Shown here piece after piece: positions 879 through 9,873 of a stretch of 9,895 nucleotides of DNA. The position numbers and the translations under genes are program-made. Source of the stretch: Escherichia coli (lineage in GTDB: Bacteria > Pseudomonadota > Gammaproteobacteria > Enterobacterales > Enterobacteriaceae); NCBI RefSeq assembly GCF_003334355.1, contig NZ_QOWP01000057.1. One strand, 5' to 3'. The notes beneath the pieces are model-generated. The model did no database searches. It was not told the origin of the DNA and saw only the letters and a list, made by a program, of their open reading frames with translations. How positions within the stretch are numbered: the first letter of the stretch is position 1; every line of letters begins with the position of its first letter.

Positions 879-906
879 GATCTGGTATAACAGGTATAAA
901 GGTGCA
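879..906. promoter_or_regulatory. NanR-type operator: GGTATA-ACA-GGTATA-AA-GGTGCA repeats immediately preceded by a GATC Dam site
   Basis: GATC at 879-882; GGTATA at 884-889 and 893-898; degenerate third repeat GGTGCA at 901-906. Tandem GGTATA hexamers are the recognised NanR binding motif, and such a site is known in the fimB-nanC intergenic region. Confidence 0.6.
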
Positions 907-1157
907 CCGCGATAGACAATGAGACAGGGCATCTTGCAATCTATGGCAAACATCACTTCAGTTCTTTCTCATCGGGTGATGAAAACGCACTTCAGTCTGA
1001 AAGGAATATGAAAATGAGATCAACAAACACTCTATTTTATGACTCTGGGTAAAATGGATTGAGTAAGTGATATAGCTTACGAACATTCAAATCAATTAAA
1101 CATCAGAAGAGATTTTATACTCAGGTATTTAATCTGGCTCTCTGTTTATTTAAATAA

Positions 1158-1178
1158 TGTGAAAAGAGAATTTTCACA
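1158..1178. repeat. Perfect 8-bp inverted repeat TGTGAAAA-N5-TTTTCACA about 145 bp upstream of the nanC start
   Basis: Read directly from sequence; candidate operator in the nanC promoter region. Spacing does not fit a canonical CRP site. Confidence 0.4.
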
Positions 1179-3192: not shown

Positions 3193-3228
3193 GCTATCAA
3201 TTTGTCATTTGTATTACGCGAAAATTAT

Positions 3229-4209
3229 ATGAACGCAATAATATCGCCCGATTATTACTATGTTCTTACCGTTGCTGGTCAGTCTAATGCCATGGCGTAT
3301 GGCGAAGGACTACCATTACCGGACAAGGAAGATGCGCCTCATCCCAGAATTAAACAATTAGCGAGATTTGCGCATACACATCCCGGAGGCCCGTCATGTC
3401 ACTTTAACGACATTATTCCACTGACTCACTGCCCACACGATGTTCAGGATATGCAGGGTTATCACCATCCTCTGGCAACGAATCATCAAACACAGTACGG
3501 CACCGTTGGCCAGGCACTACATATAGCACGGAAATTACTGCCCTTTATTCCTGATAATGCAGGGGTTCTCATCGTTCCGTGTTGCCGTGGCGGATCGGCT
3601 TTTACCGCGGGCAGCGAAGGGACATATTCAGAACGGCACGGAGCCAGCCATGATGCTTGTCGTTGGGGAACGGATACTCCGCTATACCAGGATTTAGTCA
3701 GCAGAACGCGAGCCGCACTGGCAAAAAATCCGCAGAACAAATTCCTCGGCGTATGCTGGATGCAAGGCGAATTTGACTTAATGACCAGTGACTACGCGTC
3801 ACACCCTCAACACTTTAATCATATGGTTGACGCCTTTCGTAGGGATCTAAAACAATACCATTCTCAGCTTAATAAAATTACTGACGCGCCGTGGTTTTGC
3901 GGCGATACCACCTGGTACTGGAAAGAAAATTTCCCTCATGCGTATGAAGCTATTTATGGCAATTATCAAAATAATGTTCTAGCCAATATTATTTTCGTCG
4001 ACTTCCAGCAACAAGGTGCAAGAGGACTGACGAACGCGCCTGATGAAGATCCGGACGATTTAAGCACGGGATATTACGGTTCAGCGTACCGGTCACCGGA
4101 GAACTGGACGACGGCACTGCGAAGCAGTCATTTCAGCGCGGCAGCCCGTCGAGGGATTATTTCTGACAGGTTTGTAGAAGCAATTTTGCAGTTTTGGCGC
4201 GAAAGGTGA
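3229..4209 (+). CDS. nanS: 9-O-acetyl-N-acetylneuraminate esterase NanS, 326 aa
   Basis: ORF-track frame 3202-4209. Chosen start is the ATG at 3229 (MNAIISPDYYYVLTVAGQSNAMAYGEG...); the track start at 3202 is a TTG. Recognised as NanS (YjhS). Stop TGA 4207-4209. Confidence 0.9.
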   Translation: MNAIISPDYYYVLTVAGQSNAMAYGEGLPLPDKEDAPHPRIKQLARFAHTHPGGPSCHFNDIIPLTHCPHDVQDMQGYHHPLATNHQTQYGTVGQALHIARKLLPFIPDNAGVLIVPCCRGGSAFTAGSEGTYSERHGASHDACRWGTDTPLYQDLVSRTRAALAKNPQNKFLGVCWMQGEFDLMTSDYASHPQHFNHMVDAFRRDLKQYHSQLNKITDAPWFCGDTTWYWKENFPHAYEAIYGNYQNNVLANIIFVDFQQQGARGLTNAPDEDPDDLSTGYYGSAYRSPENWTTALRSSHFSAAARRGIISDRFVEAILQFWRER

Positions 4210-4219
4210 GCGTTCATTA

Positions 4220-4488
4220 ATTTGATTTATTCGCATCCATCAGCGCTTTTAACTCCTCCGGCGTAAACGGTGGTTTGCGTCGGTGCAACATCGCATGGCA
4301 ATTAGGGCACACAGGAAGTAAAAAAACATATGAGATCAAGGTAATATATCTTCGCTTGCAGGCTTGAACCGCAGAAAATTTGCGAGCATGATCGCAATTA
4401 TTTCACTGCCAGGGATATCAATGGCTTCCAGTAAATCGCTGACGAGCCTTTTTTTGCTCTCCAGCAAATCCGTAAGCAGCGTGACCCA
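4220..4488 (-). pseudogene. HNH endonuclease remnant (C-terminal CxxCH zinc-finger region), frameshifted, no start codon
   Basis: - strand frame with codons at 4402..4220 ends ...LISYVFLLPVCPNCHAMLHRRKPPFTPEELKALMDANKSN* (stop 4217-4219). An adjacent - strand frame (4488..4339) gives the protein-like VTLLTDLLESKKRLVSDLLEAIDIPGSEIIAIMLANFLRFKPASEDILP. The two segments are in different frames and both are bounded by stops upstream. Confidence 0.4.
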
Positions 4489-4857
4489 TTATTTCGCAAA
4501 CATGTATTACGCGCTTATAACTACCAGTGCGCAATATGTAGCTTTAATATTTGTTACGGCAACTCCACCGTCTCACTGGAAGCGACACATATAAAATGGA
4601 AACAACATGGTGGCCCTTGTGAAATTCCCAATGGCCTGGCGCTTTGCGCGATACATCATAAAGCCTTTGATAAAGGAACGATTGGCCTGGATGAAAATAT
4701 GCGGGTACTGGTATTGGATGCGGTAAACGGCGGAGAGATCATTGAGAGGTCATTCTGGGATTTTGACGGAAAAATTATTGCGTTGCCACAGGTGCGTAAA
4801 AATTACCCTTTTGAGGGGGTTGTAGAGTGGCATCGGAAAGAGTTTTTTAGGGGGTGA
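4435..4857 (+). pseudogene. HNH_2-type endonuclease remnant (N-terminally truncated; in-frame TAA at 4432-4434)
   Basis: + frame 4435-4857 translates to ...QQIRKQRDPLFRKHVLRAYNYQCAICSFNICYGNSTVSLEATHIKWKQHGGPCEIPNGLALCAIHHKAFDKGTIGLDENMRVLV...EFFRG*. This matches the recalled HNH_2 signature (FR..vL.aY..CAiC ... LEAaHI ... NGLaLC..HH.aFD.G). No plausible start codon or RBS; the upstream frame is closed by stops. Confidence 0.5.
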
Positions 4858-4860
4858 GGT

Positions 4861-5169
4861 AACCATTATATATCTTTCACCTAGAATTTTAAATGTAATA
4901 GATAAAGTATTTTCTGACACCGAAAGTATTATTTATGAGTACATAGCCATAAATCAATTTTAAAATCTCAATATAAAACACGTTTACAAATATTCTAGTC
5001 AGAGTAAATATATATTCATTATAAGAGAATCCAATTATTAACCAATCGACATTACAAATTAAAAAATAATTAGCATGTTGAACTGTACATTAATTTATAT
5101 ACATAGTAAATTTACATCTATTCATGATATAATTATCGTGATATCAATTCATTAATCAGGAAAATCATA
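4861..5169. other. Strongly AT-rich intergenic block (by eye well under 30% GC)
   Basis: Dense A/T runs and TA-rich words read directly from sequence, contrasting with the nanCMS genes. Typical of horizontally acquired DNA and promoter islands. Confidence 0.7.
5125..5133 (+). promoter_or_regulatory. Candidate extended -10 promoter element TGATATAAT upstream of the 5170 ORF
   Basis: TG-n-TATAAT at 5125-5133, about 37 nt upstream of ATG 5170. No good -35 at 17 bp spacing; the AT-rich context makes chance matches likely. Confidence 0.3.
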
Positions 5170-5472
5170 ATGGAATTATTAAATACTTATGATGATAAAG
5201 AAACAGCTGAAATATTTTTTGAAAGAATAGAAGGAGAGAAAAGATTAGCAAGTGAACGAGATGCTACGGAAACAGTCTATAACCTCTTCGGGCAACCAAC
5301 CTGGAAAAATTTATATCTTCTTGATATGTTTAACCTAAAAGAATTACAAGGGATTATAGAGTGTAGAAAAAATGGACAGTCTTTCGACCAGGAACGACAC
5401 CGGGAAATAATAAAAATGCTTGAATATGCAGCAAAATCGTTTGACTTAATTATTCCTGCACATTGGCGATAA
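5170..5472 (+). CDS. Hypothetical small protein (100 aa), function unknown
   Basis: ORF-track 5170-5472. AGGAAAA 5 nt upstream of the ATG; followed by a strong hairpin terminator. Sequence (MELLNTYDDKETAEIFFERIEGEKRLASERDATETVYNLFGQPTWKNLYLLD...) not recognised as any family I know. Confidence 0.5.
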   Translation: MELLNTYDDKETAEIFFERIEGEKRLASERDATETVYNLFGQPTWKNLYLLDMFNLKELQGIIECRKNGQSFDQERHREIIKMLEYAAKSFDLIIPAHWR

Positions 5473-5474
5473 TA

Positions 5475-5507
5475 TCTGCTCCATATCTCACAGAGATATG
5501 GAGCAGA
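5475..5507. terminator. Bidirectional intrinsic terminator between convergent genes
   Basis: 15-bp perfect stem (5475-5489 pairs with 5493-5507; TCTGCTCCATATCTC / GAGATATGGAGCAGA) with 3-nt loop ACA. Flanked by A/T-rich tracts on both sides, between the 5170-5472 ORF stop and the 5519 stop of the - strand gene. Confidence 0.7.
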
Positions 5508-5518
5508 ATCATATTTAT

Positions 5519-8500
5519 TTACTCGCTAACCATCTTACTGAATAATTTCTCCAGATACAATGAGCCAGTATCCTCAATAAAAAGCACATTTCTGGCTTCC
5601 AGATTCTCTTTTGAATCAGGTACGTTTACTAAGTCAACATAACAAGTTTCAGAAACAATAAATGCACTTAATGATAAGTTATCATCCGATAATTTATGTT
5701 CAAGATTCTTGATTTCTTTATATAATCCGAACTTTGGATCATCAAGATTAAGATTGCGGATGCCTTTTGGATCAATAAGACTTAACCATTGTTTACCACT
5801 TTTATCATCGACTAACCACAATAAGAAATCCGGATAAAAATTACCCGCAGTAGCAAAGCCCAGGCCTCTATTTTTAGAATCCGCATTTCTTAGCAGATAT
5901 AAACTTTTATCACCAATAATTTTCTGCCCTTTTGTCGAATCAACAAAAGACTGAAGATCATGGACAAAAGTAATCTCACTTGATGCACCCAGTGTTGCCG
6001 GTCGCATTTTTAGCGGTATGTTGGCATTTTTTTCAATCGAAAGAAGTGGATAATAGAGATGTTTATCAAAGGTAATAGCAACCATCCCGGATGCACTCCA
6101 GGATTTTGCTTTACCGATTTCGCCGTCGATGACCAATTGTTGTAATTGTTCCAGCCGACTGGCATATGCCAACCCATCATCAGTTTCTTCGATCTCGAAA
6201 TGGTACATTTTGATCATACCAGGATCATCTTCTTTCACCTGCGTGACTTCATAAAACTGACCTTCATAAGCATTTTTCAATGTGTTGTAAAAGCGATCAG
6301 TATAATCAGTCAGCAGACGAAGCATAATATCTTCCTGCTTAGCAATATCTGCATATTGCTTAATCTCAAGCTCTGAAGCTGGAATCAAAAGGGTATACCA
6401 ACTATTTCCGATCTTTGTCTTACCGGTACAAAAGTCGATCAAACGTTGTTTATCCACACGTAAATTTGACCAGCCGCGTTGTAGTTTATAATTCTGAATG
6501 GCGAGATAAAGCCGATCAAAATCAAACGCACTAATGATTTTATAATCTAACTTCGCTTCATTACGCACGTTAACCGGAGTATTGTCCCCTTTTCTGCTGG
6601 TATCAATCGACTCAAGTTTCGGGTATAGGTCCAGCTTAATATGCGGCTGCTTAATTTTCCCCTGAAAATCAGCAGGAACTTCATACAATTCGGGAAAATA
6701 GACACGTTTAAAGCCGAGTCTTTGATTATCTTTATAACCATCTTTAAGCTTAAGTGTTTTAAGCCTGGTTGCTGGCATATTTGGCCGAGTTTCAAAATTC
6801 AGCTCAAGGATCTCGTCACTTGGCGTAATCCCTTCATCTTCCAGGTATTGTTTAAAGGTTGCCATGTAATCGGCACGTACACCGAATACATTCAGTGTCT
6901 CTAATTTTTCCAGATGCAACCCTTTCGGACGCTCACCGGGTGTACTGCGTTTCAAAGAATAATTGCGACCTTTAAGGCGAACGCCACGACCAAATAACTG
7001 AATGATCTGTGAACCTTCTCCACGGCCCATATTGAGCAATCCCATCGTTGAGACGCGCCAACTGCTCCAGCCTTCAGTAAATTTTCGCGAGCCGATCAAA
7101 ATATGTAGTTGCGAGTCTTTGTCATTTAACGTATGAAAGAGTGACTTCGCAAAATCATCTCTCTGATAATCAAATGTCGTATCCTCTTCACACATTTTGT
7201 AAAGAGACGGTGCATCACCAATATTGATAAGACCAAACGGTTCGGCCTCACCAACCTGTAATGCCAGTTCACCTTTACTGCCTATTAAATTCAGAACTCG
7301 CAGTCTCTGACCTGAGTGAGTGGTGTTAAACAAACGAGAAAGAATATCTGCGTAGATATCTTCCGGGCCGTTCATTAGTGCGGTAAAGCGATTTTCAAAA
7401 ATGTTACGCTCTTTGGTATCAAGAATTCGCGCTTTATTTTCAATGAGATCTTTAATCCACGATTTTGCCTGCGATTCATGATTTAAAAACCATGCTAAAA
7501 AACGCAGTACTGCGTGAATGTCTGAATCTTCACCACTTACGGTGTTACCGACAAAAACCCATAGCGGTTTTTCGATATTAAATTCATTTAATTTTTCTTT
7601 ATTCTTATTGAATAAATATTGTTGCTGATAAAAGCTGAGCAAACACGCGGTAAAATACTCATACCGACGCTCATCTTTTTTATCCTCTTCAGGATTAAGG
7701 TTAAGAATCAGTGATTCTTTACCATAACCATCCTCATAGAAGAATTTATAGGAGTAATCGAACAGAATCGATTTCCCATAGACTTCTCGTGTCGCCTGAA
7801 TACGCGCATCACGTTGTTCTTCGCTGGTTAATGCTATTTGCGCTAACTGTTCTTCGCTCAGTTTACCTAAGGCAGTTGTTTCAAAAAGCAGCTTTGCTTT
7901 TTTCTTCTGAATTTCTGTTTCAACTGCCTCAACATTATTGCCACCGGCCACTGCCTGGCCAAAAGTTGCTGAATATTCAAACGCAAATCCGTCACGCGTT
8001 AATTTGTCACGACGGCGCATCCAGGCACCAGCAGCACTTCCTGTGCCTTTATGCCCTTCATCAATCAGGACCAGATTGTTGCCTTCAAATGCCTCAACGG
8101 CAACAGTTTTGTCACCCATTTCATCGGCAAGTTTATTGATATCAATAACTTCAATCGTGCCTTTAAATGGCGCGGATTTACTCTTATCGAATAACTGGTA
8201 TTGGGTAAATCCTGAGTTTTCCAGTTCATCTAAATGTTGCTTCGATAGGCGTTCATCCGGCGTAAGCAGGATGATTTTATCCGGGTAATGATGGCTATTA
8301 CCGTTCTGGAAATAATGTAAATATTGCAAAATATTGACATGTAATAGCAGTGTCTTACCAGAACCAGTAGCGTTCCAGTATGCCAGTTTATTCAAATCAT
8401 CCAGAACGTATGATTTGAACTGATTAGCCCGGTCTTTTGCTGTTTTATCATTTTCAGCATTGTATGCTGCCAGCTCGTTATTTAGCCCATCGAGTAATTG

Positions 8501-8899
8501 CTGTTTACGGTTGAAGTACCAGTCCAGGTAGATCTCGGTAAACAGAAGCGACAAGTACTGAAAATATTTCATGTTCAGCACTGTGTCTTCTTTACGATTA
8601 CGGTGCTCGGTTATCTGCTGCCAGTGCTGCACGATATTGAGATCGTAACGACGCAGTTCATCGAGATCGATAAGATCGACCTCGAATAAATAGTTACTCA
8701 GCTCATGGAAGAATAAGCTTTGGCCATCTTCATGGATGCCTTCAAAGCGATCCTCGCCTAACCGATTCTTCAAACCTTGCAATGTGCCATCTTTAAAAAA
8801 ATGGAACATAAAGCGGTTTAAAACCAACTGCTTATGAAAGCTCAGCTTGCTGTTAGTCTCTTTTTTAACTGCTTTACCGGTGGTCGGTTTTTTAGCCAT
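5519..8899 (-). CDS. SF2 helicase with C-terminal PD-(D/E)xK nuclease motif; Type III restriction Res-like subunit (1126 aa)
   Basis: Intact ORF. Strong RBS GGAGGAGG 7 nt upstream of the ATG at 8899. Walker A ATGSGKT (aa 177-183; 8351-8371), motif II LIDEGH (aa 278-283; 8051-8062), motif VI QLFGRGVR (aa 634-641; 6977-7000), and C-terminal YPDFLLWLV...LIDPK (aa 1022-1045; 5765-5833) fitting PD-x(n)-(D/E)xK. Helicase-then-nuclease order matches Type III Res. Confidence 0.8.
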   Translation of the reverse strand: MAKKPTTGKAVKKETNSKLSFHKQLVLNRFMFHFFKDGTLQGLKNRLGEDRFEGIHEDGQSLFFHELSNYLFEVDLIDLDELRRYDLNIVQHWQQITEHRNRKEDTVLNMKYFQYLSLLFTEIYLDWYFNRKQQLLDGLNNELAAYNAENDKTAKDRANQFKSYVLDDLNKLAYWNATGSGKTLLLHVNILQYLHYFQNGNSHHYPDKIILLTPDERLSKQHLDELENSGFTQYQLFDKSKSAPFKGTIEVIDINKLADEMGDKTVAVEAFEGNNLVLIDEGHKGTGSAAGAWMRRRDKLTRDGFAFEYSATFGQAVAGGNNVEAVETEIQKKKAKLLFETTALGKLSEEQLAQIALTSEEQRDARIQATREVYGKSILFDYSYKFFYEDGYGKESLILNLNPEEDKKDERRYEYFTACLLSFYQQQYLFNKNKEKLNEFNIEKPLWVFVGNTVSGEDSDIHAVLRFLAWFLNHESQAKSWIKDLIENKARILDTKERNIFENRFTALMNGPEDIYADILSRLFNTTHSGQRLRVLNLIGSKGELALQVGEAEPFGLINIGDAPSLYKMCEEDTTFDYQRDDFAKSLFHTLNDKDSQLHILIGSRKFTEGWSSWRVSTMGLLNMGRGEGSQIIQLFGRGVRLKGRNYSLKRSTPGERPKGLHLEKLETLNVFGVRADYMATFKQYLEDEGITPSDEILELNFETRPNMPATRLKTLKLKDGYKDNQRLGFKRVYFPELYEVPADFQGKIKQPHIKLDLYPKLESIDTSRKGDNTPVNVRNEAKLDYKIISAFDFDRLYLAIQNYKLQRGWSNLRVDKQRLIDFCTGKTKIGNSWYTLLIPASELEIKQYADIAKQEDIMLRLLTDYTDRFYNTLKNAYEGQFYEVTQVKEDDPGMIKMYHFEIEETDDGLAYASRLEQLQQLVIDGEIGKAKSWSASGMVAITFDKHLYYPLLSIEKNANIPLKMRPATLGASSEITFVHDLQSFVDSTKGQKIIGDKSLYLLRNADSKNRGLGFATAGNFYPDFLLWLVDDKSGKQWLSLIDPKGIRNLNLDDPKFGLYKEIKNLEHKLSDDNLSLSAFIVSETCYVDLVNVPDSKENLEARNVLFIEDTGSLYLEKLFSKMVSE

Positions 8900-8901
8900 T
8901 C

Positions 8902-9873
8902 TTAAACCTCCTCCGCAAACATCAGGTTCAAGAATTCAGGTTCGATCTGGCGGATTTTCAGGCTACGAACAATCTCGCCGTCTTCTTCATCAACGGTAAA
9001 GGCGGTAGGTAAGTTATGATCGCCATTGATATAGATAACGTCGAACGTATTTTCTTTTGCATATAAATCGAATCTGTTGGCATATTTATTCAATTCTTCA
9101 TAGCCGATCTTGTCGCAATCGCGCCACAGAATAAGGGTACGCTCGCCAGTTGGTAGCGTTCCTTCAACACGCACATAGCCACGTTCGATATTGGATTCGA
9201 TGGATTTCACATGTAAGCCAATGAGATAGTTGAAAGTTTCAACTAAATCGATGTTCTTACGCTCAGTAGCACCTGCGGAATCCGTTGTAACATCCATTTC
9301 GTAGTTAAATGGTTTTTTGAAATTATCAGTATTGAGTAGTGAGCCTTTGCTTTCTGTTTCAAGCATATAGTTAAGAACATAATCCTCTCGAATTTCTTTA
9401 AGATCGTCGAAAAGATCCTTTGTTGTTTCAGTACGTTTCAGTGCTATATTGTTAAGAGTATCCTCAAAACTCTCAATTTTAATATATTTTATTAATGTCT
9501 GCTCAACTGGATTACAGCTTAGTGCTTTTCCATACTTCCAGTCAGTTGTAAAAATAGCTTTTTTTACTCTAGGCAAGGTAACAGAATAAAAATATTCACC
9601 TTGTTCGACCAAGCTAAATTTTCGAAAACCATTATCATCCCTATTCATATCTACCACTGCATGCCCTGTAGTACCAGAGCCAGCAAAATAGTCTAAGAAA
9701 TGAGCATACTTCGAATTACTAAGCGACTCTAAACATTCCTTAACCGCATAAATACTTTTTGGAAAAGAAAAATTAATCTGAGTCACGTTAAACAAACTAT
9801 TTAATAGTTCCGAACCATTGAACCGCCCCGGGTTTCCTGGAGAGTGTTTTATCTGTGAACTCAGGCTGCCAGA
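8902..9873 (-). CDS. Type III Mod-like N6/N4 DNA methyltransferase, C-terminal portion (AdoMet motif I plus C-terminal domain); reading frame interrupted upstream
   Basis: Open frame 9873..8902 contains FSFPKS...LDYFAGSGTTGHAV (motif I at 9667-9693) followed by RKFSLVEQGEYF, the pattern seen in beta-class and Type III Mod methyltransferases. The stop TAA overlaps the res RBS with only a 2-nt gap to the res ATG. In-frame stop at 9874-9876; a different frame is open 9800-9895. The catalytic DPPY-type motif is not in the window. Confidence 0.65.
   Translation of the reverse strand, partial: SGSLSSQIKHSPGNPGRFNGSELLNSLFNVTQINFSFPKSIYAVKECLESLSNSKYAHFLDYFAGSGTTGHAVVDMNRDDNGFRKFSLVEQGEYFYSVTLPRVKKAIFTTDWKYGKALSCNPVEQTLIKYIKIESFEDTLNNIALKRTETTKDLFDDLKEIREDYVLNYMLETESKGSLLNTDNFKKPFNYEMDVTTDSAGATERKNIDLVETFNYLIGLHVKSIESNIERGYVRVEGTLPTGERTLILWRDCDKIGYEELNKYANRFDLYAKENTFDVIYINGDHNLPTAFTVDEEDGEIVRSLKIRQIEPEFLNLMFAEEV

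Follow-up and report, generated by a model that had tools for sequence, protein, structure and literature searches.

The perfect inverted repeat upstream of nanC, at positions 1158-1178 of this Escherichia coli DNA, is probably a chance palindrome in A+T-rich sequence, without a specific protein partner or a function under selection. Positions are those of the window, by which we mean the whole stretch of DNA that was analysed, 9,895 nucleotides in length. The repeat is real as sequence, and shuffled versions of its surroundings yield repeats of the same quality in about a quarter of cases. One of its arms is polymorphic among strains, and it matches none of the regulatory motifs against which it was compared. 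Most likely, then, it is a sequence feature without a specific function. In the explanation that we favour, the palindrome would have arisen by chance in the stretch that separates the promoter-operator module of nanC from its start codon. The promoter would lie about 260 bp upstream of the repeat, at the NanR operator, so that the repeat would be transcribed within a leader of roughly 420 nt. There it could form a weak, probably inconsequential stem-loop.

Sequence of the repeat and its chance expectation

The repeat reads TGTGAAAA-GAGAA-TTTTCACA, and its arms are 100% complementary. The left arm occupies 1158-1165, the spacer 1166-1170 and the right arm, which includes the -35-like hexamer TTCACA, 1171-1178; none of the three is assigned to a strand. 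From the end of the repeat it is 144 bp to the ATG of nanC, whose coding sequence runs from 1322 to 2038 on the plus strand, and the local G+C content is 28-29%. The preliminary description had reported a perfect 8-bp inverted repeat with a 5-nt spacer here, as well as TGTGA and TCACA pentamers 11 nt apart within it. The sequence agrees exactly with the first statement and confirms the second.

Chance expectation was assessed with 1000 dinucleotide-preserving shuffles of the spacer at 132-1321 (36% G+C), in which we counted perfect inverted repeats whose arms were 8 nt or longer and whose spacer did not exceed 12 nt. At least one equally good inverted repeat appeared in 26% of the shuffles of this 1.19-kb sequence, with a mean of 0.31 per shuffle. 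The real sequence holds two, at 699 and 1158, and the whole 9.9-kb window holds 11, mostly within genes. The expectation for the exact word of the repeat is 0.01, a figure that is irrelevant as a test of chance because the word was chosen post hoc. Across genomes the repeat is single-copy (2,762 places in 2,759 genomes, with a median of one), and not present in the multiple copies that mark the end of a repeated or mobile element.

The palindrome at 699-717, TTATTTAGA-C-TCTAAATAA, is also perfect and is longer than the repeat at 1158. It stands between the NagC sites at 610-632 and 822-844 and scores 5.8 bits with the NagC matrix described below. Its place is presumably, in rough terms, that of the IHF binding reported in Sohanpal 2007.

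Promoter, control sites and putative leader of nanC

Positions 1-1330 of the window are 100% identical to E. coli strain FORC_031. The window opens with the end of an IS1 element (bases 1 to about 131), and bases 132-1321 correspond to the nanC-proximal 1.19 kb of the 1,455-bp fimB-nanC spacer of K-12. The nanC gene starts at 1322 and is followed by nanM. IS1 stands in place of the whole fim operon, including fimB, and therefore the NanR and NagC sites found here can serve nanC only. Gene order in FORC_031 (L128) is gntP, a fimbrial-gene remnant, IS1 and nanC. In the same strain, within the region that corresponds to about 3200-9795 of the window, nanS is annotated as a truncated pseudogene. 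After it come fragments of an HNH endonuclease and of a phosphorothioate-dependent restriction endonuclease, and beyond these, on the minus strand, a 1,126-aa DEAD/DEAH helicase and a DNA methyltransferase. This part of the window looks like a restriction or defence island adjoining the nan genes.

The nanC promoter is marked by the NanR operator GGTATAACAGGTATAAAGGTGCA (884-906, plus strand), which overlaps an extended -10 element, TGgTATAAC (883-891), made by the first of its repeats. Farther upstream, the NagC operator-like site O_NC1 (822-844, not assigned to a strand) contains a CRP-like site, TGTGACACGAATTGCA (829-844), of canonical spacing. The centre of this CRP-like site is 61.5 nt upstream of the predicted transcription start at about 898, and its placement relative to the NanR operator is just that of the CRP-like site of nanA. 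From the (T/A)GTGA half-site through GATCTGGTATAACAGGTATAAAGGT, these elements make up a promoter-operator module common to nanA, nanX and nanC. The module occupies 829-906 of the window for nanC and, in K-12, positions 5385-5465 of L129 for nanX and 16985-17045 of L130, on the minus strand, for nanA. At nanA only 45 nt separate the end of the module from the ATG, and the promoter must therefore lie in the module or just upstream of it.

Published work bears on the same region. The NanR operator has been placed inside the promoter region, on the downstream side of the RNA polymerase site (Horne et al., PMC8012715), and the in-vitro SELEX peaks of RNA polymerase holoenzyme nearest to nanC are at 4538050 and 4538166 (PMC5493296). 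With window and K-12 coordinates tied through the published coordinate of the NagC site, these peaks map to about 798 and 682 in the window, close to the module, with 370 bp or more between them and the repeat.

We predict from the sequence that nanC transcription starts near 898. Given the promoter module at about 829-906, the repeat would belong to the leader and not to the promoter, at about +260 to +281 of a transcript leader of roughly 420 nt. The preliminary description had assigned the repeat to the nanC promoter region, which is imprecise: the NanR operator, which marks the promoter, ends 252 nt before the repeat begins.

The leaders of nanC and nanX both appear to exceed 400 nt. In each gene about 411-416 nt lie between the operator and the ATG, and patches of homology between the two extend over about the first 150 nt of the leader, among them TTCAGTCTGAAAGGAATATGAAAATGAG at window positions 991-1018. 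The putative nanC leader contains small ORFs at 919-1011 (30 codons) and 1014-1052 (12 codons). The former is probably non-coding, because a 1-nt deletion in one sequence (L013) disrupts it; the start region of the latter, GAAAATGAG, is conserved in the nanC and nanX leaders. We also considered, and rejected, a 24-codon ORF at 1159-1233 whose GTG lies inside the repeat: it lacks a Shine-Dalgarno sequence, and a common indel in the A-run at 1191 shifts its frame.

Variation among strains

Two alignments were used to follow the repeat across strains. One comprised the window, K-12 and 11 other Escherichia sequences; the other comprised 116 sequences, including 106 metagenome contigs that were retrieved by a flank-anchored pattern leaving the 21 nt of the repeat free. 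Among the 21 positions, two are commonly polymorphic: 1162 (A/G), a left-arm position where the G allele breaks the DNA palindrome, and 1170 (A/T), a spacer position where C is found rarely. All four combinations of these alleles are frequent. Among 5,426 complete genomes, the A/A haplotype of the window was found in 412, the K-12 type A/T (one mismatch) in 2,347, G/A in 668 and G/T (G plus one mismatch) in 1,607. The left arm is broken by G1162 in about 45% of 5,034 complete E. coli genomes. Metagenome contigs carry G1162 in 62 of 106 cases (58%) and A1162 in the remaining 44, and hold solely the four common haplotypes and one spacer variant.

In the 116-sequence alignment, nucleotide diversity per site is 0.049 in the repeat, compared with 0.028 across 780-1321, 0.005 in the NanR operator and 0.003 in the promoter core at 851-905. 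The repeat stands at the 84th percentile among 21-nt windows. There is no sign of purifying selection on the repeat in these figures, and the conservation above neutral background across strains that is a general mark of operators is not seen in it. The right arm and seven of the eight left-arm positions are invariant in more than 100 E. coli sequences, the right arm being the same in every sampled sequence except L002. This invariance carries little weight because the whole region is 96-98% identical.

Both of the most divergent sequences, L006 and L002, carry G1162, and therefore the perfect palindrome is probably the derived state. NanC of L006 is only 85% identical, with a leader that is about 96% identical; in L002, from E. 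coli strain E69, NanC is 99% identical and the leader about 88%. Comparison of the two suggests that the nanC locus is mosaic, as a result of recombination, of diversifying selection on the porin, or of both. Leaders of the other Escherichia variants found are 96-98% identical to the window, and a megablast search of complete E. coli genomes with the E69-type leader returned no match.

Searching genome contigs for NanC gave matches only in E. coli (E69) and in one likely contaminant. The latter is a 462-nt contig (L003) labelled Terrisporobacter petrolearius that codes for a NanC 99% identical to that of E. coli; it is probably assembly contamination. At the nanC-nanM-sialidase locus of Aeromonas, which was reached through NanC homologues, the upstream region is unrelated and lacks the repeat. 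NanC proteins of 62-64% identity may represent the paralogue that belongs to the nan-9 cluster (PMC10088187).

Operator, proximal promoter or RNA element

The view that this is not a canonical CRP site, already taken in the preliminary description, is correct. The repeat and a CRP site both have inverted TGTGA and TCACA pentamers, but in the 22-bp symmetric CRP site these are 6 (or 8) nt apart, whereas in the repeat they are 11 nt apart, and at the canonical distance each arm lacks a partner. With a spacing of 6 nt a single half-site matches, and the 3 mismatches in 10 that result are background: the window contains 49 matches of this geometry with 3 mismatches, against 39 expected. The position of the repeat is about +270 relative to the inferred start at 898, or near -42 relative to a doubtful proximal promoter that is considered below.

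For NagC we took a matrix from the FITBAR table (PMC3098098), minus the site from this locus; its training sites score at least 12.6 bits. The matrix recovers O_NC2 at 610-632 (16.4 bits, not assigned to a strand), which is the published site with literature position MG1655 4538216, and the site at 822-844 (10.7 bits), 212 bp away. We take this distance to be the O_NC2-O_NC1 spacing of Sohanpal et al. 2007. The NagC operators and the repeat are alike in being A+T-rich, roughly palindromic 23-mers in the fimB-nanC spacer, and the repeat is the third-best locus of the matrix there. It scores 5.9 bits, however, a level expected by chance 1.5 times per 1.2 kb, and the two commonest haplotypes reach only 0.2 and -1.2 bits. 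The NanR operator and the repeat are both upstream of the same operon, but the operator is nearly invariant, whereas the repeat is polymorphic and lacks GGTATA: the two or three tandem GGTATA repeats of a NanR site are absent from 1150-1186.

Several other candidates were set aside. Each arm is a one-mismatch match to a DnaA box, yet such words occur at or below chance. RcdA, whose box is TTGTnnACA, has been reported to bind the nanC-fimB spacer; by eye the repeat agrees at five of the seven specified positions, and TTGTGACA at 827-834 is a better match. Among the consensuses of TyrR, the Cra/LacI family, the KdgR/IclR family, ArgR and RcsB, we know of none with a half-site spacing that fits the repeat. 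Motifs resembling TGTGRAAA-N5-TTTTCACA (up to 3 mismatches) are absent within 35 kb around nanRATEK (nanA) and within 12 kb around nanXY, and therefore the repeat is not a shared element of the sialoregulon.

The idea, put forward in the preliminary description, that the repeat is an operator for a different dimeric regulator finds no support in these results. Such a putative transcription factor would act on nanC as a roadblock or from a distal site, which we consider improbable. Consistent with an operator are the perfect 8 + 8 arms with their 5-bp spacer and half-site centres about 13 bp apart, present in roughly half of strains, as well as the reported response of nanC to more regulators than there are mapped sites; the putative protein might also tolerate the G1162 allele. 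OmpR and CpxR are reportedly among the nanC regulators, but these proteins bind direct, not inverted, repeats, which counts against their use of this site. Arguing against any operator, the palindrome is broken in 45-58% of strains and more diverse than the region on average, genomes hold it in one copy, the control regions of the other sialoregulon genes, near nanA and nanX, lack it, and it does not fit the CRP, NagC, NanR or DnaA patterns. Of the checks that had been proposed for the operator, the conservation analysis, in which a lack of conservation was to count against function, has largely gone that way, and the weight-matrix scan leaves the repeat at chance level with the NagC matrix. 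Less credible still, in our estimation, is a second, proximal nanC promoter with TTCACA (1173-1178) as its -35 element and TATAAA (1198-1203) as its -10 element, and it would be equally far-fetched to see the palindrome, near -42 of that promoter, as a class-II-type activator or repressor site. These hexamers do form the top-scoring plus-strand -35/-10 pair in 760-1315 (5/6 and 5/6), and the centre of the repeat is about 42 nt upstream of the start that they imply. The distance between them, however, is 19 nt here and at least 1 nt longer in other haplotypes, as the length of an A-run varies; it is 20 nt in K-12, whose run is one A longer (29 of 116 sequences). TATAAA is changed to AATAAA in L002 and L069, a promoter scan of the plus strand found nothing, and the RNA polymerase SELEX peaks are elsewhere.

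Alternatively, the repeat may act not as a DNA site but as a plus-strand RNA stem-loop in the long nanC 5' leader, which we think unlikely, though less so than a protein-binding site. Such a stem-loop could stabilise the transcript or direct its processing, act as a pause element, or offer an RNA-binding protein or a small RNA a place to dock. The possible weak hairpin at 1158-1178 on the plus strand has 8 pairs, a 5-nt loop and a predicted energy of -7.3 kcal/mol, and both the minimum-energy and the centroid fold of the whole putative leader retain it; the repeat is, moreover, probably downstream of the promoter. The A1162G change turns an A-U into a G-U pair and so preserves the stem on the plus (nanC-sense) strand only. 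All five haplotypes, including that of L002, fold into an 8-pair plus-strand hairpin of -6.0 to -7.3 kcal/mol; L002, with five substitutions within the 21 nt, reaches -6.0 kcal/mol by shifting its pairing register, with GCAA as the loop. Against this, the G-U pair arises by a transition, the most frequent kind of mutation, at one site only, and RNAalifold, with a covariation term of just -0.19, finds one broken pair and no pair in which both sides have changed. The compensatory substitutions typical of structured cis-regulatory RNA are thus not seen, which at such low diversity is a weak test. The whole leader is no more structured than its shuffles (z = -0.42), the paralogous nanX leader has no counterpart of the repeat, and no Rfam family matches. 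With 144 nt between it and the start codon, the hairpin is clear of the ribosome-binding site. Nor does it resemble an intrinsic terminator or attenuator, as 2 of the 8 pairs in the stem are G-C and GGAGACC, not a U-run, comes after it, and a terminator scan found none. Like the ompA-type leader hairpins of enterobacterial outer-membrane protein mRNAs, it would be a short stem-loop in the leader of a porin mRNA; those hairpins are at the 5' end, whereas this one would be internal to the leader, weak, A-U rich and without covariation. An RNA element is thus allowed by the folds and unsupported by covariation. A more specific form of this idea, in which a strand-specific stem-loop in the leader of about 420 nt, foldable in all E. 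coli lineages, exerts post-transcriptional control of the sialic-acid porin, seems to us quite unlikely. Foldability would then have been kept by alternation of A-U and G-U pairs and, in the E69 lineage, by the register shift with a GNRA loop, and the stem-loop would dock an RNA-binding protein or a small RNA, or determine processing or stability.

A functional operator or RNA element at this place would bring one more regulator to a control region that is already well studied. As the chance palindrome that we favour, it is a poor candidate for a regulatory site and not worth carrying forward. A by-product of the analysis is a map of the control elements in the window: two NagC sites, the NanR operator with its extended -10 element, and a CRP-like site. 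These elements belong to the fimB-nanC spacer, which ties the sensing of sialic acid and GlcNAc to fimbriation and porin expression.
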